The notes below the pieces were generated by a model. The model did not search any database. It worked only from the letters and a program-made list of their open reading frames with translations, and was not told the origin of the DNA. From an uncultured Candidatus Saccharibacteria bacterium (GTDB taxonomy: Bacteria > Patescibacteriota > Doudnabacteria > UBA920), in NCBI GenBank assembly GCA_964592725.1, contig CAZQFQ010000002.1:1-49130 (forward strand): DNA of 49,130 bases, in the 5' to 3' direction. Of the stretch, positions 814-49,130 are shown piece after piece. Each line of letters starts with the position of its first letter. Position 1 is the stretch's first letter. The position numbers were made by a program, and so were the translations under genes.

Positions 814-819
814 ATAAGT

Positions 820-2056: not shown

Positions 2057-2079
2057 AATATATTAACCAAACAAAAAAT

Positions 2080-4117: not shown

Positions 4118-4130
4118 ACTCCAAACCCAT

Positions 4131-4637: not shown

Positions 4638-6195
4638 AATCATAAAACGGATGCATGAAGATCCCGTCATCCGCCGTGCTGTAACCAAGCGCAGCCCCGA
4701 AGCCTTTTTCGGCTTTTATTTGCCTCACTACATGGAGTTCCAGAGCGCACCCTTCCACCAACAGTTATTTAAAATGATTGAGGACGATAGTATAAAGCTC
4801 ATGGTAGTCCAGGGCTTCCGCAACAGCGGTAAGTCCACGATCCTGTCCCAGTGTTTCCCGCTTTGGTCGGCTGTTAGCGGCCGGGCCCAGGAAATCCTGG
4901 TTTTTAGCAAAAACCAGATGTTGTCCCGCCATATCTTAAGGAACATCGGCGACGAGCTCCAGGAAAATGAACTGTTGGTTAATGACTTCCGACCCTTTGA
5001 CTATGAGCGGGACCAATTTGGAGCTTATGCCATTATGTTGCAGCGTTACCATGCAGAAATTTTAGCCGTTAGTCGCGACCAGGCCATCCGCGGTGTCAAG
5101 CGCCGGCAGCATCGGCCCCAGCTTATCATAATCGACGATGTGGACGACACTTCGTCCGTGGCCACCCAGGACAGCCGGGATGCCACCTGGAGCTGGTTTA
5201 CCAGAGACATTGCCCAGCTAGGCAACAGAAACACCCGAATTGTAGTTATTGGTTCGCCCCTGCACGAGGATTCCTTAATTATGCGGCTGGACCGGAAAAT
5301 CAAGGCTGGCGAAATGAAAGGCGTGTCTATTCGTATTCCAATAGTGGACGAGGAAAACAAACCCCTGTGGCCGGCCAAGTTTCCCACGCCGCAGCTTATT
5401 GAAGATGAACGCATGAAGATGGACGAAGTCTCTTGGGCCAGGGAAATGATGTTAAAAATTGTGCCTGAACACGGCCAGTTGATTACCTATGACGATATTG
5501 TTTATTACGACACACAACCGTCCTACAACGGCGAAGAGTATTGCGGCAGCGTCTTGTCCGTGGACTTGGCTTTTAAGGTAAAAGAGTCTTCGGATTACAC
5601 GGCCATGGTCACTGGCGATATTTTTGGCTATGCCGCTGACCGGGTGATTTACATCCAGCCTAACCCATTAAACAAAAGAATGCCGCCTAACGAATCCTTT
5701 GCCGAAGCCAAGGCCAGGGCCACTGATGGCGTGGGCCAACAAAAAAAGATTATTACCGAAGATGTCGGCGGCTTGTACATTTTTATCGACCAACTCAAGC
5801 AAGCCGGGCTACCCGTGGAAGCTTTCCAGATTAAGGGGCAGGACAAGCGCGAGAGGTATTCCTTAATTGTTAACTGGATTAAAACTGGGCGGGTTAGGTT
5901 TCCTAGAAAAGGCTGCGAGCGGCTTATAGAACAAATGGTGGGCTTTGAAATCGAGCGATTTGATGACTTATTGGATGCCGTAGTACAAATGGTCTTGTAC
6001 GTTATGCAAAACAATACTCCTAAACAGGGCGGGTTTGCCTTTATAGATTTAGGACCCACGCCGGATACCGGCGGCCTGTTGCCGCCCGACTATAGTTATA
6101 CCCCTTTAATTGGACGCCGCTCATACGGACGATCCTCAAACTCTGATTTAAACAACCTTTTAAGCGGCGCAGCAAGCAAGTTTCTTAATAGGTAG
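4621..6195 (+). CDS. phage terminase large subunit
   Basis: Start moved to ATG 4621, with AAAGGAG 9 nt upstream. Walker A-like GFRNSGKST and Walker B LIIIDDVDD. The C-terminal half is nuclease-like (SVDLAF...SDYTAMV). Confidence 0.8.
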   Translation: MKLTPKIIKRMHEDPVIRRAVTKRSPEAFFGFYLPHYMEFQSAPFHQQLFKMIEDDSIKLMVVQGFRNSGKSTILSQCFPLWSAVSGRAQEILVFSKNQMLSRHILRNIGDELQENELLVNDFRPFDYERDQFGAYAIMLQRYHAEILAVSRDQAIRGVKRRQHRPQLIIIDDVDDTSSVATQDSRDATWSWFTRDIAQLGNRNTRIVVIGSPLHEDSLIMRLDRKIKAGEMKGVSIRIPIVDEENKPLWPAKFPTPQLIEDERMKMDEVSWAREMMLKIVPEHGQLITYDDIVYYDTQPSYNGEEYCGSVLSVDLAFKVKESSDYTAMVTGDIFGYAADRVIYIQPNPLNKRMPPNESFAEAKARATDGVGQQKKIITEDVGGLYIFIDQLKQAGLPVEAFQIKGQDKRERYSLIVNWIKTGRVRFPRKGCERLIEQMVGFEIERFDDLLDAVVQMVLYVMQNNTPKQGGFAFIDLGPTPDTGGLLPPDYSYTPLIGRRSYGRSSNSDLNNLLSGAASKFLNR

Positions 6196-6272
6196 TGGGT
6201 TGATTTCAATCCTGGACTTCCACTGGCCGTTGCGGTACTGTCTAGCTTGCCTAAAAAGGGCGGAAAGGAGCC

Positions 6273-6301
6273 TTTAATTTAGCATAAATAAGTGGTATAA
6301 T
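6273..6301 (+). promoter_or_regulatory. extended -10 promoter (TTTAAT-17-TGgTATAAT)
   Basis: TGGTATAAT at 6293-6301 with a weak -35 at 6273-6278. Located 185 nt upstream of the next start codon. Confidence 0.45.
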
Positions 6302-6332
6302 TTCTTTAACAACTCAATATGAGTAGCCTAAA

Positions 6333-6455
6333 CCTTAAATAATTTAAGGCATGGTTAAATCCACTGTAATGCAGAGACGGTCACCCGTCTTGTCTTAGCC
6401 ATTACAGTGGTCCCTAATCGAAAGGTTAGGTGGGGCAAGCGGGTGGCCCTTTTTG
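6333..6455 (+). ncRNA. candidate structured leader or small RNA upstream of the DUF4352 gene
   Basis: Hairpins: 6333-6349 (7-bp stem), 6361-6410 (11-bp outer stem CCACTGTAATG/CATTACAGTGG enclosing AGACGG-TCAC-CCGTCT) and 6413-6430 (5 bp). A weak GGGC...GCCC stem plus T5 follows at 6433-6454. Confidence 0.3.
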
Positions 6456-6486
6456 ATAACTAATTCCGCAGAAAGAAAAAGTTTTT

Positions 6487-7125
6487 ATGAAAAAGTGTAA
6501 AGCCTGCCAAAAGGACATTGATCCGAAGGCAAGCAAGTGTCCTTACTGCCAAGCCGACCAGCGAGGCTGGTTTGCTAGGCACAAGGTTCTGACAGGGTTT
6601 TTGGTTCTAGTAGTGTTAATAATTATAATAGTGGCCAGCTCAAGCGGCTCTAAATCCCAAAAGGTCGGGCAGAATGGTAGCACACAAGCAACAACTGCCG
6701 GCCAAAACCAACCGGCAGCACAAGCGACAGTTTACAAGGTCGGCGACCAAATCCAGCTGGGAAATGCCATTATCAGCGTTAACCAAGTCAGCTTCTCCCA
6801 AGGTGGCGAGTTTAGCAAGCCGCAACCGGGAGATGAATGGGTGGATCTAAATATTACTATTCAAAACACCAGTTCCAGCGACCAGTACGTAACTACTTTA
6901 GGCCAGATGTTTATTAGGGACGCTGACGGTAACAGCTATCAAGTCAGTCCTACTGACAAAACCATGACTGATCCGACCCAAGGCCTAGATGGTCAGATCA
7001 TTGCTAACAGCAAGCGTACTGGCTGGGTAGGCTTTGAAGTTAAACAAGGAGCCAAGGGGCTGCAATTTCAGTACAACGCCAGTGTGTTTGGCGGCAACAA
7101 TATCTTAGTGAACTTGGGAAGCTAA
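6487..7125 (+). CDS. zinc-ribbon / single-TM / DUF4352-like domain protein
   Basis: 212 aa. CKACQ...CPYCQ zinc ribbon, a hydrophobic helix, then a beta-rich domain (GDEWVDLNITIQNTSS...RTGWVGFEV). Confidence 0.75.
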   Translation: MKKCKACQKDIDPKASKCPYCQADQRGWFARHKVLTGFLVLVVLIIIIVASSSGSKSQKVGQNGSTQATTAGQNQPAAQATVYKVGDQIQLGNAIISVNQVSFSQGGEFSKPQPGDEWVDLNITIQNTSSSDQYVTTLGQMFIRDADGNSYQVSPTDKTMTDPTQGLDGQIIANSKRTGWVGFEVKQGAKGLQFQYNASVFGGNNILVNLGS

Positions 7126-7134
7126 TTTTTCCAA

Positions 7135-7170
7135 CAAAAAACACGAGGCCAGGAAGCTTCGTGTTTTTTA
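7135..7170. terminator. bidirectional intrinsic terminator between convergent genes
   Basis: A6 run, a 9-bp stem ACACGAGGC/GCTTCGTGT (one G.U) and a T6 run. Confidence 0.75.
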
Positions 7171-7821
7171 GTTCGGGTTTTTGGCGGCTACGGCTTTGAA
7201 TAAGTCATTCATAAGCCTATGTCTTTTTTCTAAAAATTTATCATGCGGCGTGCCAGTATTTTCAGAAAGGAAACTGCCGTACTTGCGATGCCATTCCATG
7301 TTTCCTTTGTCTTTGAGTAGCTTATAGAATTTAAGCTCGCGCTGGAATTCCGGAGAGTTTTCTTCAGTCAAATAAAGATGGAGGCGCGGCAGATTGGTAT
7401 GGGTATCGATGATAACCCGCTTCTTAGTTTTATCTTTGGCTCCGGCGGGTTGGATTTTTCTGGTCCAGTCTTTTTCCACTTGCCAACCCAGAACGTCCTT
7501 AAATAAACGGAAAGAAGTGATTGAAGGAAAGTATTTATCCAAAGCAGATTTATATTTTTTAAAGTCTTTTTTGGAGCAGGTCATATAAATCTGTGGGACA
7601 AACCAATTGCCCAAACCTAAAGCATAGCCATCTATCCAGTGTAATTGAAAATTTTTATCAGGAATAACAGAGTTAATACTATTCATCATTTCTATAACAA
7701 AGTCTTTTACAACAGGCAAAGTATAGGCATAGACAAACCCGTCGATATACCTAAGGGCTTTGGAGCCTTTCACTATCGGTATACGGATCATTGGTACAAA
7801 ATTTTTTCCTTCGTAGCTCAT
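7168..7821 (-). CDS. hypothetical protein (217 aa)
   Basis: Long ORF co-oriented with 7860-8342 and 38 nt downstream of it. No family recognised. Confidence 0.65.
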   Translation of the reverse strand: MSYEGKNFVPMIRIPIVKGSKALRYIDGFVYAYTLPVVKDFVIEMMNSINSVIPDKNFQLHWIDGYALGLGNWFVPQIYMTCSKKDFKKYKSALDKYFPSITSFRLFKDVLGWQVEKDWTRKIQPAGAKDKTKKRVIIDTHTNLPRLHLYLTEENSPEFQRELKFYKLLKDKGNMEWHRKYGSFLSENTGTPHDKFLEKRHRLMNDLFKAVAAKNPN

Positions 7822-7859
7822 ATATTTATGGTACTATTTTTAGGTATTTTTGGCAAAAC

Positions 7860-8342
7860 CTATTTATTGCCAATCTCAAACTTCTGGAGCAATTCTAGAT
7901 ACCCCTTTTGAACAGGAAAAGGCACCCAATTTTCCGATAGAGGGCTAATGTTGCCGGAATTTTCAATGATCAAATGACAGGGCTGGAAGTAAAACCCGGA
8001 TAAAGAAGCAACAAATAACCACGGTGAGTGCCACCTACGGACTAAGTCCTCTGAAATTTGTTTTATTTCAGCATCGTTCAGCTTAGCTCTGTATTTGGTT
8101 TCCAACATAAAAACGTTCCCTTGTTTGGGAGCAATAAGAATAAAATCCGGGGTATGGCGGACATCAGCCAATACCTCTTTGTGTTTATCGAGCAGGTGCT
8201 GGTATTGGGCAAGTTCCGGTGTAATATACTCGTAGCCAAACCGCTGGATGATAAACTCGCCAGACTCTCGGAACATCTGCTCAAAAATAATCTCAGCAAT
8301 TTTCCCTTTAATAAGTTCCTTAGAAAAATCTAAGATTTTCAT
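7860..8342 (-). CDS. hypothetical protein, possible PD-(D/E)XK nuclease fold
   Basis: 160 aa. N-terminal AEIIFEQ, then HTPDFILI ... FMLETKYR, a PD...ExK arrangement. Motif-level evidence only. Confidence 0.45.
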   Translation of the reverse strand: MKILDFSKELIKGKIAEIIFEQMFRESGEFIIQRFGYEYITPELAQYQHLLDKHKEVLADVRHTPDFILIAPKQGNVFMLETKYRAKLNDAEIKQISEDLVRRWHSPWLFVASLSGFYFQPCHLIIENSGNISPLSENWVPFPVQKGYLELLQKFEIGNK

Positions 8343-8368
8343 AGAAATTTTTTTATTTTACTATTAAG

Positions 8369-8590
8369 TTATTCTTCAAACTGAATTTTTCTTAACTGTT
8401 TTTCTTCATCCGCGCTTTGCTTGGCACTTGCGGCGCCCAAATTTAAATCTTTAATAGCTTTTTCAGCAAAGCTCTTCACCCGAGGGTTAGAATCACCCAA
8501 AAATCTCTCTAACTCCTTGGCTCTTTGTTCGTGGGCGCGGGCAATGCCATATTCACCACTAACCACACCAGTCGAAAAAAGTTGAGCTCG
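8369..8590 (-). pseudogene. 3' fragment of an unknown gene, truncated at the IS110 remnant
   Basis: Only about the last 73 codons (...SGEYGIARAHEQRAKELERFLGDSNPRVKSFAEKAIKDL...) lie outside the IS110 frame. The upstream part of the 132-aa track ORF is antisense to the IS110 reading frame. Confidence 0.45.
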
Positions 8591-9389
8591 CAATTGGGAG
8601 GCCGGGCTGGATGTCCGGGTCATCAACCCGCTGATGTCAGCCAAGTACGCCCAGAGCAACATCCGTAAAGTTAAGACCGACAAGGCCGATGCCAGGCTTT
8701 TGGCCAAGATCGCCATAGTGGAATCTGATTTGCCCCATACCTTTGCTTGTAGCCGCCAGGAGGTCAATTACCGCAAGAAAATGAAGCTTTTGGATACTTT
8801 GAGCGACCAGATTACCAGACTACAACTGGCCTTAAAAAATTACCAATCCACCTTAGCACAATTGGGATTGCCCTTAAGCCAAGGCGAGGCCGGACTGCAC
8901 GAAACAATTAAACTTTTAAAAATTCAGAAAAAGCAGCTGCTACAGGAACTGGGACCGAACGCGCCGACTACAAATCCGGAAGAGGCTGAGATGCGGAAGC
9001 GATTGCAAGAAGTTCCCGGCGTATCCGCCCATACCGCCGCTGCGGTCACAATGCTGATGGCAGAGGGACCGGCCACCACCGCCAAGCAATGGATCGCCTA
9101 CACTGGCCTGGATATTTCAATTAAGGAGAGCGGCCAGTGGAAAGGCCGGTGCAAAGTCAGCAAGCGCGGCAACAGCGTCCTCAGGCGGTGGATTTACGGA
9201 GCGGCTTGGGGCGCAGCAATTAACAACGACCAGTTTCGTTCCTACTACGAATATTTAAAAAACAAAGGTCGGCACCATTTTGAATGTCTGATGATTATCG
9301 CCAGAAAATTACTCCGCATAATGTTTAATTTGGTAAAGAACAAGACTAAATTTAATCCGGCGATTCCGCTGATACCGGCGGCAGCATAA
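8586..9389 (+). mobile_element. 5'-truncated IS110-family transposase gene (remnant)
   Basis: The frame is open from 8586. It contains ...VINPL...KTDKADARLLA, then VPGVSAHTAAAV...YTGLDISIKESGQWKG...SKRGNSVLRRWIYGAAW (C-terminal transposase domain). The N-terminal DEDD/RuvC-like portion is absent. Confidence 0.8.
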
Positions 9390-9494
9390 AGCAAGTATTT
9401 CAAGGCTATTTGAGTTATCTACTGCCTGGGTCTGGACACCTCTCCCTTTAACTGGCATTCCTTGTAGTAGAGACTATTAAAAGAAAGGAATAAA

Positions 9495-10844
9495 ATGCAA
9501 GGAATTACAACGATTCCAGCCATGGGGACGGCAACCAACATAACCGTGGCATCGACAATAGCGGCGATACCGGCCAGCTACTGCCTGTACGCCAGAAAAA
9601 GTACGGAACAGGATGAGCGGCAGGCTTTGAGCATCGACAGCCAGATTAAAGAGATGCTGGAGCTGGCAAACCGAGACGGTTTAAATGTAACCGAGGTTCG
9701 TAAGGAAAGTTACAGCGCCAAAGACTCAGGTCAGCGTCCGGTGTTCAACAGCATTATCGCCGACATTCGCAGCGGCAAATTTAACAGCATCCTGACCTGG
9801 GCGCCGGACAGGTGCAGCAGGAACGCCGGGGACTTGGGAGTCTTGGTAGACCTGATGGATCAAGGACTGCTGAAAGAAATCCGAACTCACGGCCAGAGGT
9901 TCAGCAACAACCCAAACGAAAAATTTCTACTGATGATTTTATGCAGCCAAGCCAAATTGGAAAATGACAACAAAAGTTTAAACGTTAAGCGCGGACTTCG
10001 GGCCAAGCTAGAACTAGGCCTCTGGCCTGGGACGGCACCGACCGGCTACCTCAATGAATATAGGACAGACCGCAAGGGCCACCTCTTAGTAGACCACCAG
10101 CGAGCCCCCATAATCAGGCAGATGTTTGAAAAAGTGGGTAACCAAAGCTTAAGCGGCAGACAGGTATATATCTGGCTGAAAGAAACAGATTTTAAAACCA
10201 AAGGCGGCAAACACTTAAGCCTCAGTAATATTTATCTAATTTTAAAAAACAGCTTCTATAGTGGTGTGGTGGAATACCCAGTCGGCAGCGGTAAGTGGTA
10301 TACCGGTAAGCACACCCCACTTATTTCTAAAGAGCTGTTTGAAAAGGTGCAGGAGCGGCTAACACGGGATCATGTGGTCAGGGTTAGCAAGGAGTTTGCC
10401 TTTACCAAGCTAATGACCTGTGGGGTATGCGGCTCTGGCATCTCAGCCGAGGAAAAACATAAAGTATACAAAAACGGTACGGAAAAAACTTATGTTTACT
10501 ACGGTTGCTGCAGGTCTAAATCCAGGGAAAAAAGCTGCGGGTCCGGCTATATCCAAGAGGGTGAACTGGTGAGCCAGCTAGCCAAGATTATAGACCAAAT
10601 TGACATCAACGAACTGGGGATGAAGGCTAAGCTGGAAGAAGAAATCAAGCGAGCAAAATATCTACAGACCACAGTCCTAGGTATGGAAGCCAAAGCCGAA
10701 GACCCAGATATAGAGCAGGTCGATGTTAGGACTTACGCTAAACATATTATTAAGCATGGTAGCCTGATCGACAAGCGCGAACTGTTGGGGTGCCTAAAGA
10801 CCAAGTTATTTTTAACTCACAAAGTGCTGAGCCTACAAAAGTAG
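9495..10844 (+). CDS. large serine recombinase/integrase
   Basis: 449 aa. Resolvase catalytic domain (YCLYARKSTEQDERQALSIDSQ), a recombinase domain and a Cys-rich zinc ribbon (CGVCGSG...YYGCCRSKS). AAAGGAA lies upstream of the ATG. Confidence 0.9.
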   Translation: MQGITTIPAMGTATNITVASTIAAIPASYCLYARKSTEQDERQALSIDSQIKEMLELANRDGLNVTEVRKESYSAKDSGQRPVFNSIIADIRSGKFNSILTWAPDRCSRNAGDLGVLVDLMDQGLLKEIRTHGQRFSNNPNEKFLLMILCSQAKLENDNKSLNVKRGLRAKLELGLWPGTAPTGYLNEYRTDRKGHLLVDHQRAPIIRQMFEKVGNQSLSGRQVYIWLKETDFKTKGGKHLSLSNIYLILKNSFYSGVVEYPVGSGKWYTGKHTPLISKELFEKVQERLTRDHVVRVSKEFAFTKLMTCGVCGSGISAEEKHKVYKNGTEKTYVYYGCCRSKSREKSCGSGYIQEGELVSQLAKIIDQIDINELGMKAKLEEEIKRAKYLQTTVLGMEAKAEDPDIEQVDVRTYAKHIIKHGSLIDKRELLGCLKTKLFLTHKVLSLQK

Positions 10845-10868
10845 GAGAGCAAAAAAGATAGACAAAAA

Positions 10869-10896
10869 ATTACAGGCAAACACCTGTAATTTTTTC
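10869..10896 (+). terminator. intrinsic terminator after the recombinase gene
   Basis: ATTACAGG-CAAACA-CCTGTAAT followed by T5. Confidence 0.8.
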
Positions 10897-11041
10897 TGTA
10901 GAAATAAATTTTAGCTTCCAACTTTTTTTATCGTGATTTTGGTTCGTACCCTAGAGGGGTGAGCAATAACGCACTTAGGACTAGAACTGATTTTCGGGCT
11001 TATTTATGACGCCCGTCGGTCTGTACGATAAGAAAAGTTGG

Positions 11042-11116
11042 TGGCTGGGGCGGTAGGGATCGAACCTACGAATGGGGGCTTCAAAGGCCCCTGCCTTACC
11101 GCTTGGCTACGCCCCA
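11042..11116 (-). tRNA. tRNA-Gln (anticodon UUG), CCA encoded
   Basis: Cloverleaf read by eye: acceptor TGGGGCG/CGCCCCA, anticodon stem GGGGC/GCCCC with loop CTTTGAA, T arm GTAGG-TTCGATC-CCTAC, then G-CCA. Confidence 0.9.
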
Positions 11117-11213
11117 AGGACAAAACGATTAACGATTAACAATTTACAATTAACTTAGGCAACTGATATATTATAAAATAAATTTGTGAAAAAGGAAAGG
11201 CCTCAAGGTAAAC

Positions 11214-14510: not shown

Positions 14511-14674
14511 TAAGAACCTATTTTAAAAATAATTTGTAGGCGAAATTACAGGATTTTGAGCGGATTGGCCCTTAACAAATTTTGACGTTTAGCCGAAGCT
14601 AAGCGGAAAAATTTTTAAGGCCAAGACGCCAAAATCCTGGAATTGCAGCCCGAAGGATTTTTAAAATAGGTTCT
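14511..14674. repeat. B-family long hairpin element, copy 1 (~165 nt)
   Basis: Core 14523-14664 aligns with 31078-31220. The outer 13-bp stem is AGAACCTATTTTA/TAAAATAGGTTCT. Lies between the ftsL-like stop and the ftsI start. Confidence 0.8.
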
Positions 14675-15101: not shown

Positions 15102-15182
15102 AGTCGTTAATTTTTATTTATAATTTTTATCTTTATTTTTTGTTTAACGCTTTTTTGGGTTTTGATTTTTATTTTCATAAAG

Positions 15183-15283
15183 AAATCGAATCAGCGAATT
15201 AGACGAATCTGCGAATGGCTGCGAATCAACGGATCTCAAATTCGTTGTCATTCGCAGATTCGTTCCATTCGTATATTCGATTT
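15183..15283. repeat. A-family ~100-nt palindromic element, copy A1
   Basis: AAATCGAAT...ATTCGATTT termini built from CGAAT/ATTCG words. Ends 1 nt before the rsmH stop codon. Confidence 0.85.
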
Positions 15284-15284
15284 A

Positions 15285-16226
15285 TTAAAATTTAATTATC
15301 GCCCTTAACTTTGCCGGCTTGCTTTTTGGGTTATGCGCTAATTCGTGCGAATTAGCCGTTACCGGTTTTTTTGTCAAAATTTTGCCTTTTGGATTTCGGC
15401 CGCACAAGCATTGGGGAAATTCCGGCGGACAAATACAGCCTTTGGTTAGTCCGACAAAAAACTGTTTGACGATTCTGTCTTCCAGAGAATGAAAGCTGAC
15501 GACAACCAGCCGTCCGCCGGGAACTAATAAATCAAAGGCTTTTGGCAAAAATTCGGAAAGATTTTCCAACTCATGATTCACTTCTATTCTTAATGCCTGG
15601 AATATTCTTCTGGCGCTGTCATCAGCTTTGTGCTTAACCGGCTTGGGCAGAGCTTCGACAATTATCTGATAAAGCTGATATGTGTGTTTTATTTCTATTT
15701 TATTTCCCCTATTTCTCAATATCCTTCTCGCAATTTGCTTAGAAAATTTCTCCTCGCCGTAATCTTCAAAAATTTTTACCAATCTCTTTTCGTCGTAATT
15801 ATTTAAAATAAACTTCGCGTCCAATTGTTGTGACAAGTCAAACCTCATATCCAGAGGCTGGTTGGTCTGAAAGCTTATTCCGCGGTGTTCCAATTCATAG
15901 GATGACAATCCCAAGTCCGCGACAATTCCATCCGGCGCCGGAAAATTATGATGTTTGATGATTTTATCAACGTGCGCAAAATTTCCCTGTTCAGTTATCA
16001 CCCTCTCCCTCTTGGAGAGGGTCAGGGTGAGGGTCTTAAAATTCTCAACCGCATCCTTATCCAAATCAATCGCCAACAATTTCCCGGTTTCACCAATTTC
16101 TTTTAATACCGCTGATGTATAACCACCTCCACCCAGCGTGGCGTCTACGATATTTTGACCCGGCTTAGGATCCAGGTATTCAAGAACTTCGTTCAGTAAT
16201 ACCGGAGTATGTTCATAATTTTGCAT
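15285..16226 (-). CDS. rsmH: 16S rRNA (cytosine1402-N4)-methyltransferase RsmH
   Basis: HTPVLLNEVLEYL, DATLGGGGYT, DLGLSSYELE and SFHSLEDRIVK. Confidence 0.9.
   Translation of the reverse strand: MQNYEHTPVLLNEVLEYLDPKPGQNIVDATLGGGGYTSAVLKEIGETGKLLAIDLDKDAVENFKTLTLTLSKRERVITEQGNFAHVDKIIKHHNFPAPDGIVADLGLSSYELEHRGISFQTNQPLDMRFDLSQQLDAKFILNNYDEKRLVKIFEDYGEEKFSKQIARRILRNRGNKIEIKHTYQLYQIIVEALPKPVKHKADDSARRIFQALRIEVNHELENLSEFLPKAFDLLVPGGRLVVVSFHSLEDRIVKQFFVGLTKGCICPPEFPQCLCGRNPKGKILTKKPVTANSHELAHNPKSKPAKLRAIIKF
15999..16035 (-). repeat. in-frame GGGAGAGGG-type palindromic element inside rsmH
   Basis: CACCCTCTCC-CTCTT-GGAGAGGG-TCAGGGTGAGGGTC, translated as ...KTLTLTLSKRERVITE... Confidence 0.75.
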
Positions 16227-18851: not shown

Positions 18852-18856
18852 AAAAG

Positions 18857-18958
18857 AAATCGAATCTACGAATTAGACGAATCTGCGAAGGACAACGAAT
18901 GAACGAATTCAGCAATTCGTAGTTATTCGTTGATTCGTTCCGTTCGTAGATTCGATTT
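18857..18958. repeat. A-family palindromic element, copy A2
   Basis: Fills the whole spacer between the stop of 18961-19344 and the ATG of 18432-18851. Confidence 0.85.
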
Positions 18959-18960
18959 AT

Positions 18961-19344
18961 TTAAGTGAGCTTGACCGAACGCGCCAAAACGTCTTTTACT
19001 TTTTGGATAATATCGTCAACCGACTGGTCGGATTTCAGCAAATAATCCACAGCCCCGGCTTCCACAATCTTACTAATAGTTTCCACATCGCCGATGTTGG
19101 TCAAAACTACCACCGGAACTTTAGCCGTGGAAGGATTGGCTTTAAGCTCCCAAAGTACGGAAATGCCGTCCAACTTAGGCATCATAATGTCCAAAAGCAG
19201 CAAATCCGGCACTACTTCCTTGGCCTTTGCCACTGACTCTTCCCCGTCATAAGCCGGAGTAGGCTCAAATCCTGCTGTTTTGAGGGCCTCACATAGTGAA
19301 TTAGAGATAAGTTTGTCGTCTTCGGCCACTAAAATTTTTGGCAT
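18961..19344 (-). CDS. single-domain response regulator (CheY-like receiver)
   Basis: PKILVAEDDKLISN...LLLLDIMMPKLDGISVLWELK. Confidence 0.85.
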   Translation of the reverse strand: MPKILVAEDDKLISNSLCEALKTAGFEPTPAYDGEESVAKAKEVVPDLLLLDIMMPKLDGISVLWELKANPSTAKVPVVVLTNIGDVETISKIVEAGAVDYLLKSDQSVDDIIQKVKDVLARSVKLT

Positions 19345-19362: not shown

Positions 19363-19446
19363 CTTTACTAACTACTAATCTTTACTAATATACTAAAGCA
19401 CGATATCGAGAATTAGTATATTAGTACCGATTCGTAGTTAGTAAAG
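19363..19446. repeat. unique hairpin built from TACTAA/TTAGTA words
   Basis: CTTTACTAACTAC-7 nt-TACTAATATACTAA ... TTAGTATATTAGTA-7 nt-GTAGTTAGTAAAG, giving 13 + 14 bp of pairing. Lies between the kinase stop and the receiver start. Confidence 0.75.
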
Positions 19447-21154: not shown

Positions 21155-21251
21155 ATAGAAGCGAAGCCAAACGCGAAGTCTGCAACGCGAACCTAAACGC
21201 GAATTCACGGCTTTTTCGCGTCGCTGTATTCGCGTCTTCCTTCGCTTCTAT
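21155..21251. repeat. unique hairpin built from CGCGAA/TTCGCG words
   Basis: ATAGAAGCGAAG...ACGCGAA...TTCGCGT...CTTCGCTTCTAT. Fills the spacer between 21254-21517 and the kinase ATG. Confidence 0.75.
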
Positions 21252-29187: not shown

Positions 29188-30528
29188 CTATAACTCCTTT
29201 ACCCTCCCAAACCCGATGGAATCGCTAAAGGCTTTGCCGGCCGGGAGCATTTGCGCGCGGAGGATGGTAAACTCGCCGTATTTATTGTTGATTTTGTCCA
29301 GGGCTAAAAGCAGGCGTTTTTGGCGTTCCGCGTCGCCGAACAAACTTAATTGGTTTTCGTGCAGTCTCAACCCGGCTACCGTAACGCCGATGAGTTTGGT
29401 ACCCTCCGTAGGGGAGGGTTTCAAACCCTCCCCTACGCCGCCTGTCATCATCTTCTCGCATTCCAAAAATATCTCCCGTCCATCCTGCAAAAAATATCCC
29501 AGCTTAATACTCTTACCAAACCCTTCATAATTTTTATCGTGGCAATAAAAATGAATAACATTCCCCATCAGCCCTTTTTTGCGCAAACGCCGGCCGACCA
29601 TTTCGCACAATTTATACAGCACGGGCATAAAAAATTCCGGCTTGCGAAATTCCACGGGCAAAGTATACATATGCCCCATTGATTTTATCTCTTGTTCCTG
29701 ATGAACGAGCTCTTTCCAGGTTCCCTCAAGTTGCCCGATGTTATACAAATGATGCCCCATAATATTGCCAAACCGGCTGACCAAATGGCTTTTGGGATAA
29801 TCCCGCAAATCCTTGAGCGTGCGGATGCCGAGCGCGTTTAAATTTTTTTCCTGCCTCCGGCCGATGCCCGGGATGTCTATCAACCGCAATTGATCGTACA
29901 ATTGATTTTTAATCAAAATGTCGCAATTGCCATCGCCGTAGGGGCGGGTTTGAAACCCGCCCCTACAATGGCCATAAGGCAAGATCACAACAAGTCCATC
30001 CGGCTTTTTCATATCCGACCCGATTTTGGCGAGCAGTTTATTTTCCGCGATGCCGATACTGCACCTTAGCCAGTCCCCGACCTCGGTTTTAAACCGCCGC
30101 TTAATTTCTTGCGCGATGCTTACGGCTTCTTCAAAGGGGTCTACCAGCTGATATGCTGATAAGCTGATCAGCTGATCAGCTGTCCTGACATTACACGCCT
30201 TGGTCAAATCCGCGAACACCTCGTCTATGCTGTAAACTTCCACCGCTGATGTGTAGTCGGACACCACCTTGACCATCAACCGATTAAAATGCCGGTAACG
30301 CTCCGGCCGCGTGGGCGTAAGAATAATTTTCGGGTAAAGTTTTACGGCTTCCCAAACCGGCGTGCCGGTTTTAACGCCCCATTTTTTTGCCTCCACGCTG
30401 GCCGCGATTATTATGCCGCCCAAATGCTCGCACACGCCTAAGGGCTTGCCGCGCCAGGCTAAATTATCCTGCTGTTCAACAGAGGCAAAGTAGCTGTTCA
30501 TATCAAGATGCATAATAACGGTCTGCAT
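29188..30528 (-). CDS. dinB: DNA polymerase IV (Y-family)
   Basis: Start set at ATG 30528 (MQTVIMHLDMNSYFASVEQ). IDEVFADLT and SIGIAENKLLAKIGSDMKKPDGL. The track's N-terminal extension is a translation of the leader hairpin. Confidence 0.9.
   Translation of the reverse strand: MQTVIMHLDMNSYFASVEQQDNLAWRGKPLGVCEHLGGIIIAASVEAKKWGVKTGTPVWEAVKLYPKIILTPTRPERYRHFNRLMVKVVSDYTSAVEVYSIDEVFADLTKACNVRTADQLISLSAYQLVDPFEEAVSIAQEIKRRFKTEVGDWLRCSIGIAENKLLAKIGSDMKKPDGLVVILPYGHCRGGFQTRPYGDGNCDILIKNQLYDQLRLIDIPGIGRRQEKNLNALGIRTLKDLRDYPKSHLVSRFGNIMGHHLYNIGQLEGTWKELVHQEQEIKSMGHMYTLPVEFRKPEFFMPVLYKLCEMVGRRLRKKGLMGNVIHFYCHDKNYEGFGKSIKLGYFLQDGREIFLECEKMMTGGVGEGLKPSPTEGTKLIGVTVAGLRLHENQLSLFGDAERQKRLLLALDKINNKYGEFTILRAQMLPAGKAFSDSIGFGRVKEL
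29407..29437 (-). repeat. in-frame perfect palindrome CGTAGGGGAGGGTTT-C-AAACCCTCCCCTACG inside dinB
   Basis: 15-bp arms, translated as GGVGEGLKPSPTEG. Confidence 0.8.
29938..29966 (-). repeat. in-frame perfect palindrome GTAGGGGCGGGTTT-G-AAACCCGCCCCTAC inside dinB
   Basis: 14-bp arms, translated in a different frame as CRGGFQTRPYG. Differs from 29407-29437 by a compensated A/T to C/G change in the arms. Confidence 0.8.
30145..30183 (-). repeat. in-frame tandem 8-mer / palindromic tract (NAGCTGAT)x4-5 inside dinB
   Basis: CAGCTGATATGCTGATAAGCTGATCAGCTGATCAGCTG, translated as TADQLISLSAYQLV. Confidence 0.7.
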
Positions 30529-30604
30529 ATCCTTTATCCTTAATCCCTTATCCTTTACCACTGCATGCGATCAAGGATGAAAGATAAAAGATTAAGGATA
30601 ATTC
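30529..30604 (-). promoter_or_regulatory. dinB 5' UTR consisting of one hairpin that pairs AAGGAU (SD-like) words with AUCCUU words
   Basis: 12 perfect bp, then about 14 more. Four C.A mismatches on the plus strand become G.U pairs in minus-strand RNA. The hairpin ends at the start codon. Confidence 0.5.
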
Positions 30605-31066: not shown

Positions 31067-31231
31067 TAGAAGCTGTCTTAAAAATAATTTGTAGGCTAAA
31101 TTTTCAGAATTTTGAGCGGATTGGTCCAAATAAATTTTGACGTTTAGCCCAAAGCTAAGCGGAAAAATTTTTTGGGCCAAGACGCCAAAATTCTGGAAAT
31201 TTAGCCCGAAGGATTTTTAAGATAGCTTCTA
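31067..31231. repeat. B-family long hairpin element, copy 2
   Basis: Core 31078-31220 aligns with 14523-14664. The outer stem TAGAAGCTGTCTTA/TAAGATAGCTTCTA differs from copy 1 but still pairs. Confidence 0.8.
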
Positions 31232-31616: not shown

Positions 31617-31663
31617 AGTCGTTAGACTATAGACTATAGACTAAGAACTAAAGTCTAACTACT
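31617..31663. repeat. unique hairpin built from TAGAC/GTCTA words
   Basis: AGTCGTTAGAC...GTCTAACTACT with TAGACTATAGACTATAGACTAAG between the arms. Fills the spacer between two membrane-protein genes. Confidence 0.6.
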
Positions 31664-32230: not shown

Positions 32231-32404
32231 TTAGACGGTCTGCTCGTATTGTTTAAGCATTGCCCGTTGATCTTGGTTGGCTTTTCTGACAACACCTTCC
32301 ATTACCCTTCGTTTTTCTTCCGGCGTAGCATCGTTAAAAAATGAGGAAAAATCTTTTTTCTCTTGCTTAGGCTTGCCAAATAACCGTTTTAGCTTTGTGA
32401 TCAT
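32231..32404 (-). CDS. small ORF (57 aa) translationally coupled to the zeta-like kinase gene
   Basis: MITKLKRLFGKPKQEKKDFSSFFNDATPEEKRRVMEGVVRKANQDQRAMLKQYEQTV. Its ATG overlaps the upstream TGA (ATGA), and a terminator follows 2 nt after its stop. Below the ORF-track cutoff. Confidence 0.45.
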   Translation of the reverse strand: MITKLKRLFGKPKQEKKDFSSFFNDATPEEKRRVMEGVVRKANQDQRAMLKQYEQTV

Positions 32405-33099
32405 AAAATGTTCTCCAATTCTTCCTTAGTATACACCTTAGGCAAATATTTATCAACGCAGTCTATATTATCAAAAAGTTGTTCAATATTTCTGGTGAAA
32501 TCCTTAATTATTAAGTTGAGTTCCACTCTATCCCCAAAGTGCGTTTTGGCCATGCTGACATTTTCACGCGCGCGAACAAAAGAGTGGATAAACACTTCTT
32601 TTGAAACTCTTCGACCTTCTTTTTCCTCACGGGCTTTAGTAAACGTCCAGGCAACCATCGGGTCTTGAAATAAATAGTAAATAATTACCAGACGATTATG
32701 TTTAAGTGAGCGTTCAATATTTTCCATCGCCCGTTCATAAGCAAACGTACCGTCCAATATGGCGTTGATGTTGTTGTACAAAACATAATCAAAAAGTTTG
32801 TTTACCCCAATGGTACAGGCGCTCTGAAAAATGTGTGAATTGGCGCCGCTGTAATTTGGAAAAATTACGCGAATATCATCGGCGTCAATTCTTACCGGAA
32901 GGTTGCCGGTAAACAACTCTATCAAACGTTTGGATACTTCGGTTTTACCGGCACCGGGCGATCCTGCCATAAACAAAGATATGGGATTTGAGTTGAAATA
33001 ATAAACCTTAGGGTCAGCAAAACGGGTTATAAGCTCGTCTTTGTGCTCTTTAATATAACTTTCAGCTTCTTTAATCAATTTTTGTTCTTCATCTGACAT
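32401..33099 (-). CDS. zeta-toxin-family P-loop kinase
   Basis: Walker A MAGSPGAGKTEV, then RIDADDIR and ILDGTFA spaced as in zeta/AAA_33 kinases. Confidence 0.6.
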   Translation of the reverse strand: MSDEEQKLIKEAESYIKEHKDELITRFADPKVYYFNSNPISLFMAGSPGAGKTEVSKRLIELFTGNLPVRIDADDIRVIFPNYSGANSHIFQSACTIGVNKLFDYVLYNNINAILDGTFAYERAMENIERSLKHNRLVIIYYLFQDPMVAWTFTKAREEKEGRRVSKEVFIHSFVRARENVSMAKTHFGDRVELNLIIKDFTRNIEQLFDNIDCVDKYLPKVYTKEELENIL

Positions 33100-35061: not shown

Positions 35062-35064
35062 AAT

Positions 35065-35165
35065 AAATCGAATCTGCGAATTAGACGAATCTACGAATGA
35101 CTACGAATTAACGAATTCGTACTTCGTAGGGATTCGTTGATTCGTTCCATTCGTAGATTCGATTT
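35065..35165. repeat. A-family palindromic element, copy A3
   Basis: Spans from about the predicted mreB transcription start to 4 nt before the mreB ATG. Has a central ACGAATTCGT. Confidence 0.85.
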
Positions 35166-35170
35166 ATTGA

Positions 35171-40848: not shown

Positions 40849-40853
40849 AAATA

Positions 40854-40954
40854 TGATACCAATATACTAAATATACGAATGATACCAATAATACTAATCT
40901 TGAGTAATCCGTATTATTAGTATCATCAGTATTTAAATTCGTATATTAGTATCA
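40854..40954. repeat. unique hairpin built from GATAC/AATA/TACTAA words in the eno-gpmI spacer
   Basis: TGATACCAATATA...GATACCAATAATAC pairs with GTATTATTAGTATC...TATATTAGTATCA. The C.A mismatches become G.U pairs on the minus (sense) strand. Confidence 0.65.
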
Positions 40955-42235
40955 TATAATTGCTTCTATCTCCAGCAACCGATTATATTTCGCCAACCGT
41001 TCCCCGCGACAAGGCGCGCCGGCTTTTATGTATTCCGCGTTCACAGCCACGGCCAGGTCGGCGATAAAATCATCTGATGTCTCCCCGCTTCTGTGCGAAA
41101 TGACGATTTTATATTTATTTTTTTGCGAAAGTCTAACGGCCGCCAAAGTTTCCGTTAGCGTGCCGATTTGGTTTAGTTTGATTAAAACCGCGTTGGCGAT
41201 TTTTTGGGTGATGCCCATTTGGATTCGTTGCGGATTGGTCACAAACAAATCGTCGCCGATGAGCAAAGTTTTATCGCCCAAATTTTGAGTTAAAAATTTC
41301 CAGCCCAACAAATCGTCCTGCGCGCAACCGTCTTCTATTGCCATAAGCGGATATTTGGCCAGCCATTTTTTGTAGACTTGATAAATGTTGGCCGACGTGG
41401 CGGACATTTTGCCGGCCTTGAATTCGTAAATGCCTTTTTTCTCGTTAAAAAACTCGCTGGATGCCGCGTCCAGTCCCAAAGCAAAATCCCTCCCTAGTTT
41501 ATATTTTGCCGATTTTATTGCGGCCTCAAGTTGTTTAAACGCGTCTTCATTGGAAGAAAGTTTTGGCGCGAACCCGCCCTCATCGCCTACCGAAGTTGCG
41601 AGCCCCTTAGCCGCGAGTTGCGATTTTAACGCGTGATACACTTCCGCGCCCATTCTTAGCTTATTGGCAAAATTTCCCCTAAGCGGAACAAGGAAAAACT
41701 CCTGCACATCCAAACCGCTGTCCGCGTGCACCCCGCCGTTTATAACATTAAAAAACGGGGTCGGTATTTTATACGCTTCCCTCCCCCTCTGGGGGAGGGT
41801 CAGGGAGAGGGTTTCATCGTCTGGCAAATACATCCCCCTCAAATACTCAAAAAGCTCCCTTTTTTGGCATTTTGCGGCCAGCCTGGCCGAAGCGAGCGAA
41901 ACCGATAAAATGGCGTTCGCGCCAAGTTTGGCCTTATTGTCCGTGCCGTCCAGCTCTATCATCATTTCGTCAATTTTTTGCTGATCCCCGCAAGATATCC
42001 CCTTAACAGCCTTAAATATCTTTTCTTCCACATTCCGGCAAGCCTTAAGCACGCCCTTACCGCCATACCGCTTTTTATCCCCATCCCGGAGCTCCAAAGC
42101 CTCATGCACCCCGGTAGAAGCCCCGCTGGGCACGCTGGCCTTAGCGCTAATATCTCCCGCCCAAACCGTGGTCTCCACCGTCGGATTTCCCCTACTATCC
42201 AACACCTCCAAAGCCCTAATTTTTGTTATCTTCAT
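40952..42235 (-). CDS. eno: enolase
   Basis: ITKIRALEVLDSRGNPTVETTVW, SVPSGASTGVHEALELRDGD and ISHRSGETSD. Confidence 0.95.
   Translation of the reverse strand: MKITKIRALEVLDSRGNPTVETTVWAGDISAKASVPSGASTGVHEALELRDGDKKRYGGKGVLKACRNVEEKIFKAVKGISCGDQQKIDEMMIELDGTDNKAKLGANAILSVSLASARLAAKCQKRELFEYLRGMYLPDDETLSLTLPQRGREAYKIPTPFFNVINGGVHADSGLDVQEFFLVPLRGNFANKLRMGAEVYHALKSQLAAKGLATSVGDEGGFAPKLSSNEDAFKQLEAAIKSAKYKLGRDFALGLDAASSEFFNEKKGIYEFKAGKMSATSANIYQVYKKWLAKYPLMAIEDGCAQDDLLGWKFLTQNLGDKTLLIGDDLFVTNPQRIQMGITQKIANAVLIKLNQIGTLTETLAAVRLSQKNKYKIVISHRSGETSDDFIADLAVAVNAEYIKAGAPCRGERLAKYNRLLEIEAII
41779..41812 (-). repeat. in-frame GGGAGAGGG-type palindromic element inside eno
   Basis: CCCTCCCCC-TCT-GGGGGAGGG-TCAGGGAGAGGGT, translated as DDETLSLTLPQRGREAY just before the conserved P.P..NViNGG segment. 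Confidence 0.8.
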
Positions 42236-46312: not shown

Positions 46313-47469
<1,157 letters not shown>

Positions 47470-47473: not shown

Positions 47474-48490
47474 TTAATCTTTTTTCTTGCTGACCATCTC
47501 CATTATTTCTTTTTTTATTTTTTCATCCGCTATTTCAATAACCTTAAAATCTTTTAACCTTTTCAGCTCGGCTTCCATCTCGTGCTTTTTAAGCAACCCC
47601 GCTTGCGGCCCGACCTCTTGGACAACGGAGCCGGCGTTAATGGGACCCCAACGCAGGGCCTCACGATGAGGCAAGCCGTGAGCCAAAGCCGCAATATAGG
47701 CTGTGGTAAACGCGTCGCCCGCGCCCGTGGCTTCAATAAGCGGGCCGGGATATTCCGCGATATAATAAAATCCTTCTTTGCTGTAACTATAAGCGCCGCG
47801 GCGGCCGTCGGTCAAGGCGATTGCCTTGGGTCCCAACTTCATCAGCTTTTTACAAAGCTCCTCCGGGTCGCGCCCGCTTTCGCCCACCCAGCTTTGCGCT
47901 TCTTCCACGTTTACCGATAATAAATCTGTATGCCCCAACATCAGTTTATTTTCTTCCGGCCCGGCCCTAAGCTGAAAAGTCCCCGGGTTAAAACCCAAAC
48001 GAACATTATAGCGGTCCAGATATTTTGCCAAATCCTGATAAATTGTTTCAAAACCCAAACCCATGCTCGTTAAGTATATCCACGATGAATGGACAAACGG
48101 CGGCAATTTATATTTCCGGTGTTCGTGGTAAACAAAAATCGTGCGTTCGCCGTCGTGGCTCAGTACCGTAGAAGCATTGGTCGGGTGTTTGTCATTTTTG
48201 ATAATGTAGCGGGTGGACACGCCTTCCTTTTCCATTTTGTGCACAATTTCGCGTCCGCCGGTGTCGTGCGCCACCACGCAATAATACGCCGTCCTAAGGC
48301 CCAGTCGGCTGCTTCCCACGGCGTTATTGGCCGCGTTGCCGGCCACGGTGCGATAGAATTTGTCCACAGGCAATTTATCGCCCCAATTAATTATAGCTTT
48401 TTTAACGCCGCCAATTTCCTTTATTTCCACGTCCTTAACAATCAAGAACGTGTCTATTGTCGGATCGCCGATGCTGATAATATCAAACAT
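47474..48490 (-). CDS. PfkB-family carbohydrate/nucleoside kinase
   Basis: 338 aa. GAGDAFTTAYIAAL (PfkB signature 2) and an N-terminal GD.T.D.F pattern. Confidence 0.8.
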   Translation of the reverse strand: MFDIISIGDPTIDTFLIVKDVEIKEIGGVKKAIINWGDKLPVDKFYRTVAGNAANNAVGSSRLGLRTAYYCVVAHDTGGREIVHKMEKEGVSTRYIIKNDKHPTNASTVLSHDGERTIFVYHEHRKYKLPPFVHSSWIYLTSMGLGFETIYQDLAKYLDRYNVRLGFNPGTFQLRAGPEENKLMLGHTDLLSVNVEEAQSWVGESGRDPEELCKKLMKLGPKAIALTDGRRGAYSYSKEGFYYIAEYPGPLIEATGAGDAFTTAYIAALAHGLPHREALRWGPINAGSVVQEVGPQAGLLKKHEMEAELKRLKDFKVIEIADEKIKKEIMEMVSKKKD

Positions 48491-48504
48491 AAGCTAGTGA
48501 TTAG

Positions 48505-48531
48505 TGCTTAGCGAATAGAGAATAGGATAAG
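48505..48531. repeat. left arm of the inverted repeat enclosing the four-helix-bundle gene
   Basis: GTGCTTAG-cgaatag-AGAATAGGATAAG pairs with 48908-48930 (CTTATCCTATTCT-CTAAGCAC). Confidence 0.75.
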
Positions 48532-48900
48532 TCACCACTTTTTTTCGGATAATTTAGTGTTTTTAATTAAACTGGCCAACATTTTCTGGACTTCAATAAC
48601 CAAGCCATCTGCTTTTGAATAATCAATATTCTGATATTGCGACTTTGCAACTATGAGATGAGTTTCCAATTCCGTAGCAGATCCGAATGAAATATTTAAA
48701 AATCTTATAAACTCAATCTTATGATTTCTCGCCCAGCCTTCCGCTATATTTGCCGCAATGGAAATTGCCGCTCTTATCATCTGTGGAACCAAAATAAACT
48801 TTTCCTCAGATGGCAACTGTTTGCAAATCTTATAAATATCCTTTACTAATTCAATTGCCTTTTGCCAAACTATCAAATCTTTATAACTTTTTATTGGCAT
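48532..48900 (-). CDS. four-helix-bundle protein of the 23S rRNA intervening-sequence protein family
   Basis: 122 aa. YKDLIVWQKAIELVKDIYKICKQLPSEEKF.LV.QMIRAAISIAANIAEGWAR...EFIRFLNISFGSATELETHLIVA is the family hallmark. Confidence 0.85.
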   Translation of the reverse strand: MPIKSYKDLIVWQKAIELVKDIYKICKQLPSEEKFILVPQMIRAAISIAANIAEGWARNHKIEFIRFLNISFGSATELETHLIVAKSQYQNIDYSKADGLVIEVQKMLASLIKNTKLSEKKW

Positions 48901-48907
48901 ATATCGT

Positions 48908-48930
48908 GTCTTATCCTATTCTCTAAGCAC
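48908..48930. repeat. right arm of the inverted repeat enclosing the four-helix-bundle gene
   Basis: See 48505-48531. Starts about 8 nt upstream of ATG 48900. Confidence 0.75.
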
Positions 48931-48948
48931 TATTCTCTATGCACTTCT

Positions 48949-49130
48949 TTAGCTTTTTCTTTTTAGCACCTTCCTCACCGCCGCGATAACCGCCGTTTTT
49001 CCCATCCCAAATTTTTCTATCAGCTGGTCCGGCTCGCCGGACTCGCCAAAAGTGTTGGGCATGCCGACCATTTCCACCGGCACCGGATAATTCATCGCCA
49101 GCGCCTCGCACACCGCCCTACCGCAGCCGG
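48949..49130 (-). CDS. transketolase-family C-terminal domain, 3' end (partial, runs off the window)
   Basis: A frame not listed in the track reads ...AMNYPVPVEMVGMPNTFGESGEPDQLIEKFGMGKTAVIAAVRKVLKRKS*. The FGESG...L...G pattern is typical of transketolase C-termini. Confidence 0.65.
   Translation of the reverse strand, partial: GCGRAVCEALAMNYPVPVEMVGMPNTFGESGEPDQLIEKFGMGKTAVIAAVRKVLKRKS

Follow-up and report, generated by a model that had tools for sequence, protein, structure and literature searches.

The four-helix-bundle (4HB) proteins of the TIGR02436/PF05635 family, the '23S rRNA intervening-sequence (IVS)' protein family, were reportedly first found inside the 23S rRNA of Leptospira in 1993. 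In the 23S IVS of Coxiella, two to three tandem heptamers (GACAGAT) precede the homologous open reading frame (ORF) and RNase III cuts within the stem (PMC4990558); the ORF itself was reported to be decaying and untranslated. Family ORFs were described inside rRNA helices (PMC11270868), and family genes were found in a cas operon between cmr3 and cmr2 (PMC3936711) and between gmk and nadD of Flavobacterium (PMC5524665). Here, a stretch of 49,130 nt (the window: positions 1 to 49,130 of contig CAZQFQ010000002.1) was analyzed, in which a 4HB gene lies in the loop of an inverted repeat between a transketolase gene and pfkB. The window is part of a 59.6 kb metagenome contig (L001) of Patescibacteria (Doudnabacteria-like), and the closest named homologues are those of Doudnabacteria. 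We consider it fairly probable that positions 48491-48955 are one copy of a widespread, promoter-less cassette of the IVS type, in which imperfect inverted arms enclose a 4HB gene and, by pairing, would set it apart as a loop of the host transcript, with RNase III as the probable nuclease acting on the stem.

Among the long simple repeats of bacteria, heptamers form the largest class, an abundance that has been attributed to polymerase slippage. The cyanobacterial short tandemly repeated repetitive (STRR) sequences have reportedly been known since 1990, whereas it is said to have been 2007 when heptamers were recognized to be in excess among the simple repeats of bacteria. STRRs consist of 7-bp units and form hairpins between hupS and hupL (PMC2670836), GGGAATC repeats of Xanthomonas comprise 70 convergent pairs and GGGGA(T/C)T repeats occur in Nostoc (PMC4692102), and TAACTGA heptamers are repeated in Beggiatoaceae (PMC4679880). 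The 4HB family is not mentioned in these three papers. According to the supplement of PMC4692102, however, repeat #15 is situated at a distance of 6 nt to accB (XCC0517) and extends across the start of XCC0516, which encodes the 4HB protein of PDB 2gsc, the structure that defines the family. In the literature covered, which was incomplete so that an earlier description is possible, neither a description of the IVS layout outside rRNA nor a link between heptamer repeats and 4HB genes was found.

The last three genes of the window, encoding the C-terminal part of transketolase, a 122-aa ORF and PfkB, are all located on the minus strand. Read in their sense direction, the features of the locus are:

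48949..49130, minus strand: upstream host gene, 3' end of the C-terminal subunit of a split transketolase, running off the window (Transket_pyr + Transketolase_C, 324 aa on the source contig)
48906..48955, minus strand: upstream (5') arm, purine-rich tandem heptamers, in sense GTGCATAG AGAATAG TGCTTAG AGAATAG GATAAG ACAC
48532..48900, minus strand: 122-aa 4HB gene (TIGR02436/PF05635), pI 9.3, R-x3-S-x3-N-x2-E motif
48491..48535, minus strand: downstream (3') arm, pyrimidine-rich complementary heptamers CTTATC CTATTCT CTATTCG CTAAGCA CTAATCA CTAGCTT
47474..48490, minus strand: downstream host gene, PfkB-family sugar kinase (ATG 48488-48490)

The arms are composed of tandem 7-nt words of the type NNNNTAG / CTANNNN. 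Without gaps, the inverted repeat extends over 51 nt at 73% identity (48485-48535 and 48906-48956); with gaps, 48491-48535 pairs with 48906-48955, and a single 7-nt word and a gap of 2 nt set one arm apart from the other. Polymerase slippage is an ordinary explanation for growth of arms in such 7-nt steps. At its outer end the stem touches the start codon of pfkB and spans the transketolase stop codon (TAA, 48949-48951), which is overlapped by the outer end of the upstream arm. At its inner end it includes the stop codon of the 4HB gene and halts 5-9 nt short of the 4HB ATG. Since the stem ends reach these codons, the two spacers flanking the 4HB gene (48 and 41 nt) are both nothing but arm. 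The 4HB gene is co-oriented with both neighbours. No rRNA was detected in the window by an Rfam search, and a position inside rRNA was rejected for this copy, as it is located between transketolase and pfkB. The first-pass annotation, made from the letters of the window, had described an ORF bracketed by two arms in an rRNA-IVS-like layout outside rRNA. This observation was confirmed: the ORF lies in the loop of a conserved inverted repeat, the arms are 1-2 nt off from where it had placed them (GTGCTTAG starts at 48504, CTTATCC at 48910) and the repeat is longer than it had noted. The interpretation that it attached to the layout was supported in part.

The two arms aligned with a score of 34, compared to 14.4 for shuffled sequences (z 8.8), and 0 of 100 shuffles reached 34. 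Joined to each other, the arms folded with -46.4 kcal/mol, and in the 481-nt sense RNA the stem closed the ORF in both the minimum-free-energy and the centroid structure (z -4.7). The inverted repeat is therefore genuine and beyond chance. That it is a chance or low-complexity artefact of AT-rich, purine-skewed spacers might be suspected from the low complexity of the arms and the gapless identity of just 73%, but this reading is refuted by the controls and retains practically no probability: besides the z-score against shuffles, a 29-nt block is identical in a copy elsewhere, and the feature is found in 3.4% of control ORFs. No consensus promoter was found along the spacers' minus strand, which is weak evidence as the promoters of this phylum may differ from the consensus. 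Likewise, the spacers contain no terminator-like site: an intrinsic terminator has a short stem rich in GC and then a run of T, whereas the arms are rich in AT and separated by 370 nt.

To compare the layout across the family, 79 metagenome loci, 80 loci of species-representative genomes (mostly Patescibacteria and Bacteroidota), 12 loci of viral contigs and 4 loci of cyanobacterial plasmids were used; the ~170 loci cover the candidate phyla radiation (CPR), Bacteroidota, cyanobacteria, soil bacteria and viral contigs. Inverted repeats flanked 57% of 77 metagenome copies at a strict threshold, compared to 3.4% of 206 control ORFs taken from the same metagenome loci (Mann-Whitney p 5e-15), and 58% of 78 copies in the species-representative genomes at z >= 4. 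They were also present around 9-10 of the 12 viral-contig copies and in cyanobacterial plasmids. Over the whole sample, 50-58% of ~155 family copies were bracketed (3% of control genes). Bracketing of this kind can thus be called the rule among 4HB genes. In every lineage the arms were tandem heptamers, the sequence of which differed by lineage (CGGGACA, GGGATTC/GGGGTTA, GTTTTAG, GAGGAGC, GGCATTG, CAGGAGT, GTAGGGA and TTTAGGG), and the mean lag-7 autocorrelation of the flanks was 0.44-0.47, compared to 0.29 in controls. The median arm length was 30 nt; cassette arms measure ~30-50 nt and contain four to seven tandem heptamers each. The 5'-side arm was purine-rich in 58 of 64 cases, a polarity that is intrinsic to the repeat and alike on either strand, and that puts a Shine-Dalgarno-like sequence ahead of the loop gene.

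The upstream neighbour of the 4HB gene was co-oriented in 118 of 127 cases (93%), compared to 76% of control gene pairs (p 3e-6), and the orientation of the downstream neighbour was at control level. The median spacer was ~54 nt. Upstream co-orientation and short spacers are what a promoter-less cassette living on read-through transcription predicts. In a crude scan for six conserved rRNA motifs, none adjoined the gene in the ~170 sampled loci. The cultured Carboxylicivirga linearis FB218 (L138 8207-11555) carries three 4HB genes in its his operon, in the order ahpC, 4HB, hisH-hisA, 4HB, hisF, 4HB, hisIE, and each has its own heptamer word. The arms of 4HB genes from soil bacteria and Nostoc were of the GGGAATC/STRR-like heptamer types.

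By its profile scores, the window gene is clearly a true member of the TIGR02436/PF05635 family (PF05635 116.3 bits, cut-off 33.8; TIGR02436 117 bits, cut-off 24), to which the 122-aa ORF had already been assigned. The protein matched PDB 2gsc (pentameric XCC0516, E 2e-15) and also 2rld (a sequence match only). The motif GxxRxxxSxxxNxxE, described as the family signature (PMC3936711), is present as R43, S47, N51 and E54; across 28 homologues, R43, N51 and E54 never vary, and S47 is nearly invariant with a conservation of at least 90%. A match to Avd was obtained as well (PF22296 E 1e-5; NF033474 30.7 bits, equivalog cut-off 80). Identity with Avd, a protein of diversity-generating retroelements, was rejected, as the NF033474 score is below the cut-off, the neighbours are metabolic and no reverse transcriptase, template repeat or variable repeat is adjacent. 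Compared with five homologues (six CPR copies), the window protein showed a dN/dS of 0.03-0.08, with synonymous sites saturated among the six copies (pS 0.55-0.94) and a dN of ~0.1. Judged from this substitution pattern, strong purifying selection acts on the protein, which is therefore functional, and the copies must be of old date. Despite the synonymous saturation, the arms of the window copy and of the copy at locus L010 are 86% identical, and therefore the arm sequence is constrained, not pairing alone. The 4HB protein most likely binds nucleic acid and possibly its own arms.

Homologues with 81-88% identity carry the same arms in other tight, co-oriented operon spacers. Gene and arms together were found in four spacers: tkt/pfkB, ATPase/mscL (a cation ATPase), femAB or trmB/glmS (one upstream neighbour of glmS is trmB-like) and the spacer between the serine hydroxymethyltransferase (SHMT) gene and cofD. 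The L010 copy at SHMT/cofD contains a 29-nt block of the upstream arm that is identical to the window and shares 35 of 41 nt of the downstream arm, and the junctions between arm and gene were kept between copies at different sites. Three relatives with the same operon (PfkB 86-90% identical) have no 4HB gene at tkt/pfkB. One has a 22-nt spacer there, one an unrelated GC-rich hairpin and one a small GIY-YIG gene, and a heptamer hairpin was found in none of these three orthologous spacers. In one relative, two copies of a GC-rich hairpin of ~90 nt (GGCGTCATTCTGA...TCAGGATGACGCC) are located in tktN/tktC and tkt/pfkB of locus L092 (1798-1900 and 2910-3001); they belong to a separate family of spacer hairpins.

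Filled and empty sites also occurred in reciprocal arrangement. Locus L091 carries the gene at SHMT/cofD and a gene-less hairpin in the spacer upstream of glmS, which holds the 4HB gene in L005, L006, L012 and L013. This hairpin (L091 4706-4799, 92 nt) has the element's own arms, including a 32-nt block equal to the upstream arm of the window, and its loop GGTG matches the last bases of the ORF (..TGGTGA). L006 shows the reverse, with the gene at glmS and a gene-less hairpin of TAG heptamers at SHMT/cofD. A second, degenerate gene-less arm pair of the same family was detected on the window contig (L001 481-541), upstream of dnaX and ~9.5 kb past the window end.

The same distribution could arise in the opposite order. 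Heptamer hairpins, as host RNA elements or small repeats, would then have existed in operon spacers beforehand, and the 4HB gene would be cargo that entered their loops by site-specific homing or by gene conversion through arm homology, the inverted repeat being a split target and not the element ends. Gene-less hairpins with local words appear to outnumber additional 4HB genes (11 of 32 neighbourhoods of 20 kb, compared to a second gene in 11 of 173 loci, of which ~80 are 20 kb), TAG-ending heptamers of like style form a hairpin in the empty SHMT/cofD spacer of L006, and the short loops of two gene-less copies from different genomes resemble each other (GGTG and GGCA). Small, selfish-type genes of other families in spacers of the same operon sit in inverted repeats as well: GIY-YIG genes at L094 2725-2973 (tkt/pfkB) and 5418-5711 (gap/pgk), with z 6.5 and 17, and a DUF559 gene on the window contig outside the window (L001 7600-7956, rpe/tktN; z 10.8). 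That these genes are also bracketed favours RNA looping, or hairpin loops as insertion targets. Nevertheless, an origin of the hairpins before the gene appears unlikely to us, if by no means far-fetched: the arm/gene junctions are conserved across copies at different sites, the L091 loop equals the end of the ORF as expected of a deletion, the three orthologous tkt/pfkB spacers lack a heptamer hairpin, and arm words track protein similarity.

The latter relation was seen when words and proteins were compared. Elements with the same word had a protein identity of 0.69, compared to ~0.42 for words differing at three or more positions, and paralogues within one genome had differing words. Therefore, words belong to element lineages and not to genomes. 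The correlation follows from co-inheritance and is no proof of recognition. A relation in which the same word implies a related protein across phyla was rejected, as AAGGCAG arms accompany unrelated proteins in Bacteroidota and in cyanobacteria-like contigs. Across 1.3 Mb of sampled loci, the survey of hairpins with periodic arms gave 59 for period 7 and 4-15 for any other period. Local arm words of 4HB genes recurred within 10 kb in 11 of 32 loci, compared to 2.2% when searched across genomes (p 5e-11), and the copies read through were mostly gene-less hairpins. In the cassette reading, such same-word hairpins either derive from the cassette by deletion of the gene or represent its empty partners. 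In a Staskawiczbacteria genome, a gene-less hairpin (L127 13066-13142) and the arms of the 4HB gene at the same locus both consist of TTTAGGG, which is the plant-telomere heptamer. Within the window, a single gene-less hairpin shares the word style and polarity of the cassette arms, which is a likeness of style:

31617..31663, no strand assigned: short gene-less hairpin of TAG-ending heptamers (GTCGTTAG ACTATAG ACTATAG ...), lag-7 autocorrelation 0.81, -15 kcal/mol

The first-pass annotation had suggested that the spacer hairpins may be empty versions of the element. This was borne out for the L091 hairpin and for the arm words recurring in 11 of 32 loci, but not for the CGAAT, ACTAA and CGCGAA hairpins of the window. 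The arms have no words in common with these conspicuous gene-less hairpins, and the periods of those hairpins are 8-13 nt, not 7. One family of ~100 nt hairpins with CGAAT words and a period of 8-10 nt (15180-15286, 18853-18962, 35062-35168 and 47361-47450; -40 to -57 kcal/mol) occupies entire intergenic spacers, and the pfkB/gap spacer of relatives holds a word-built hairpin too, with the words drifting to CGGAT (L092 4017-4154) and CCGAAT (L094 4131-4234). Kinship of the CGAAT hairpins with the cassette was rejected, as no words are common to both, the hairpins repeat at 8-10 nt and arms of this type were absent from every 4HB gene sampled among its CPR or Bacteroidota relatives. Further spacer hairpins are located at 19363-19446 (ACTAA), 21155-21251 (CGCGAA), 40851-40957 (ATACTAA/ATACCAA) and 30528-30600 (TTATCC). 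In the ACTAA, CGCGAA and ATACTAA hairpins, word and period differ from the cassette arms; the TTATCC hairpin has period 7 and an arm polarity opposite to that of the 4HB arms.

Many same-word gene-less hairpins in operon spacers, a conserved arm sequence, strong purifying selection and a basic pI would also suit a resident host regulator. The 4HB protein would then bind heptamer hairpins in trans and thereby control how the transcripts of many operons are processed, stabilized or translationally coupled; through its own hairpin it would regulate itself, and absence of the gene would mean loss and not mobility. We regard this as improbable, since related genomes have the gene at different spacers with reciprocal empty sites, and since there are several paralogues with different words per genome and even per operon, as the three in the Carboxylicivirga his operon. 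Moreover, the gene is also encountered inside rRNA genes and cas operons as well as on plasmids and viral contigs (PMC11270868, PMC3936711), and a family gene was reported as strain-specific accessory (PMC8700078).

A bolder extension can be put forward tentatively, as a possibility that we rate below an even chance. In this extension, 4HB proteins would be the missing protein partners of heptamer repeats, each paralogue recognizing a 7-nt word of its own, perhaps such that every subunit of the pentameric ring takes one word, and thereby binding, processing, maintaining or mobilizing its own arms and the gene-less hairpins of the same word. The TRAP protein binds triplet repeats in a comparable, subunit-wise way.

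For the window locus, the cassette reading leads to the following scheme. The cassette fills the transketolase/pfkB spacer of a sugar-phosphate operon and would be transcribed by read-through from the upstream gene. In the transcript, the arms would pair and loop out the ORF, which would bring the transketolase stop codon beside the pfkB start codon, so that the insert may harm the operon little. By analogy with 23S rRNA IVSs and the Coxiella element, the stem is probably an RNase III substrate, and its cleavage would release the 4HB message. Looping and release would account for the tolerance of the cassette in rRNA helices, in cas operons, between gmk and nadD and in operons of his, acc and glycolysis genes. 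From co-transcription onward, the steps of this scheme are inferred.

Several results weigh against this scheme. About 40-50% of family members have no inverted repeat at the thresholds used. When filled and empty sites were compared, no target-site duplication was found, and in the contexts read no transposase, integrase or recombinase was linked to the cassette. No recent transposition was seen, and the moves must be old because synonymous sites are saturated between copies. The stem spans the likely ribosome-binding region although selection clearly acts on the protein, which requires that the stem opens now and then. Among the 20 window ORFs scanned, none was an RNase III gene, which is uninformative for a 49-kb window. 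Finally, mismatches in 42 stems comprised 35 G-U and 40 A-C pairs, and this lack of G-U excess gives no sign of selection that acts specifically on the sense RNA, although such selection is still compatible with the counts. A role at the DNA level, or neutral decay of initially perfect arms, explains the mismatches equally well.

Such a role at the DNA level would make the arms terminal inverted repeats, or else hairpins formed by single-stranded or cruciform DNA, recognized by a recombinase in trans or by the 4HB protein; gene-less copies would be akin to MITEs (miniature transposable elements with inverted repeats), and the RNA stem would be incidental. Apart from the absent G-U over A-C bias, this fits with an arm sequence that is kept, beyond mere pairing, past synonymous saturation, with words common to gene-less and gene-bearing copies of one genome and with paralogues of one genome each having their own words. 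On the other hand, target-site duplications are not discernible at filled versus empty sites, no recombinase is linked in the contexts read, and upstream co-orientation is not predicted unless selection filters insertions afterwards. We therefore judge it rather unlikely, while taking it seriously, and retain the RNA-looped cassette as the preferred reading.

Other repeats and mobile genes were observed in the window. Near-identical palindromic units of ~150 nt (TTTTAAAAATAATTTGTAGGC...TTTTGACGTTTAGC) at 14517-14670 and 31076-31222 form a separate dispersed repeat family. GC-rich palindromes of the GTAGGGGAGGGTTTCAAACCCTCCCCTAC type at 29401-29443 and 29927-29982 lie 493 nt apart in a Y-family DNA polymerase ORF (29188-30561, minus strand). 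Positions 1-11200 are likely an integrated element adjoining a tRNA gene (11045-11116). This putative element contains two DNA methylases (2080-4117), one of them fused to a ParB-N domain, a LOOT RNA (6325-6449), a fragment of an IS110-family transposase (8634-9389) and a large serine recombinase (9495-10844). Amid housekeeping genes, a zeta-toxin gene (32401-33099) and, on the window contig, a PemK-family toxin gene (L001 14399-14791) were found.

The IVS with a family ORF in rRNA was already known, and the family is widespread, appearing in papers as an accessory or "cas-associated" gene. New here is a class of heptamer-armed 4HB cassettes in operon spacers with gene-less counterparts, of which the window locus is one member. 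This ties together two long-unexplained features, a 4HB family without a function and the heptamer repeats of bacteria, and makes the rRNA-IVS layout the normal habitat of 4HB genes in ordinary operons across phyla. Annotators who meet a 4HB gene amid the genes of a cas, his or acc operon should regard it as a probable insertion and not as a functional partner. Pairs of a protein and its cognate word, several per genome, make the function of both the family and the heptamer repeats directly testable, and cultivable carriers are available with Nostoc punctiforme, PCC 7120, Xanthomonas campestris (XCC0516) and Carboxylicivirga linearis (his operon). Should the 4HB proteins indeed recognize their words, they would constitute a new protein-plus-repeat genetic element, based on neither a transposase nor an integrase, and would provide a joint account of rRNA IVSs and of repeats of the STRR/GGGAATC type, at least of those with 4HB words.

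Several known systems share single traits with the cassette. MITEs and their parent transposons, and repetitive extragenic palindromes with their associated tyrosine transposases (REP/RAYT), likewise have many short, intergenic, gene-less hairpin copies sharing ends with fewer gene-bearing copies, and the inverted arms and the second gene-less arm pair on the window contig resemble a MITE-like or terminal-inverted-repeat transposon. In contrast to these, the enclosed 4HB gene is no known transposase, no target-site duplication was seen and the arms are repetitive with period 7. Free-standing homing-endonuclease genes and integron cassettes are also small promoter-less genes wedged co-oriented between host genes, and in a relative GIY-YIG genes take up the same spacers, likewise with inverted repeats on their flanks; however, no nuclease or integrase domain was detected in the 4HB protein, and an integron cassette has a single 3' attC hairpin where the 4HB ORF has two arms around it. 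Avd, a pentamer that binds nucleic acid and reverse transcriptase (PMC10053308), has the same fold and superfamily and is basic as well, but the 4HB score is under the Avd cut-off, and the neighbours are transketolase and PfkB, with no reverse transcriptase or template/variable repeat.

The heptamer repeats (STRR, GGGAATC, GGGGA(T/C)T and TAACTGA) share with the cassette tandem 7-nt units in spacers, often as convergent, hairpin-capable pairs between co-transcribed genes, and they are transcribed (PMC2670836, PMC4692102, PMC4679880). These papers treat them as G-quadruplex formers, slippage products or regulatory motifs, whereas here the repeats bracket a gene. The 23S rRNA IVSs with an S23p/4HB ORF (Coxiella burnetii, Leptospira, Xanthomonas and Brucella) have a homologous ORF in the loop of a long stem, in the sense of the host transcript and without a promoter, as in the window. 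They are located in helix 25 or 45 of the 23S rRNA, whereas the window copy is located in an mRNA operon spacer. In the Coxiella IVS heptamers likewise lie just upstream of the ORF, with two to three GACAGAT there and five NNNNTAG in the window. The ORF of that IVS is reportedly decaying, whereas the window protein is under purifying selection, and the excision by RNase III that was demonstrated for Coxiella is what the likeness of the two layouts suggests for the window.

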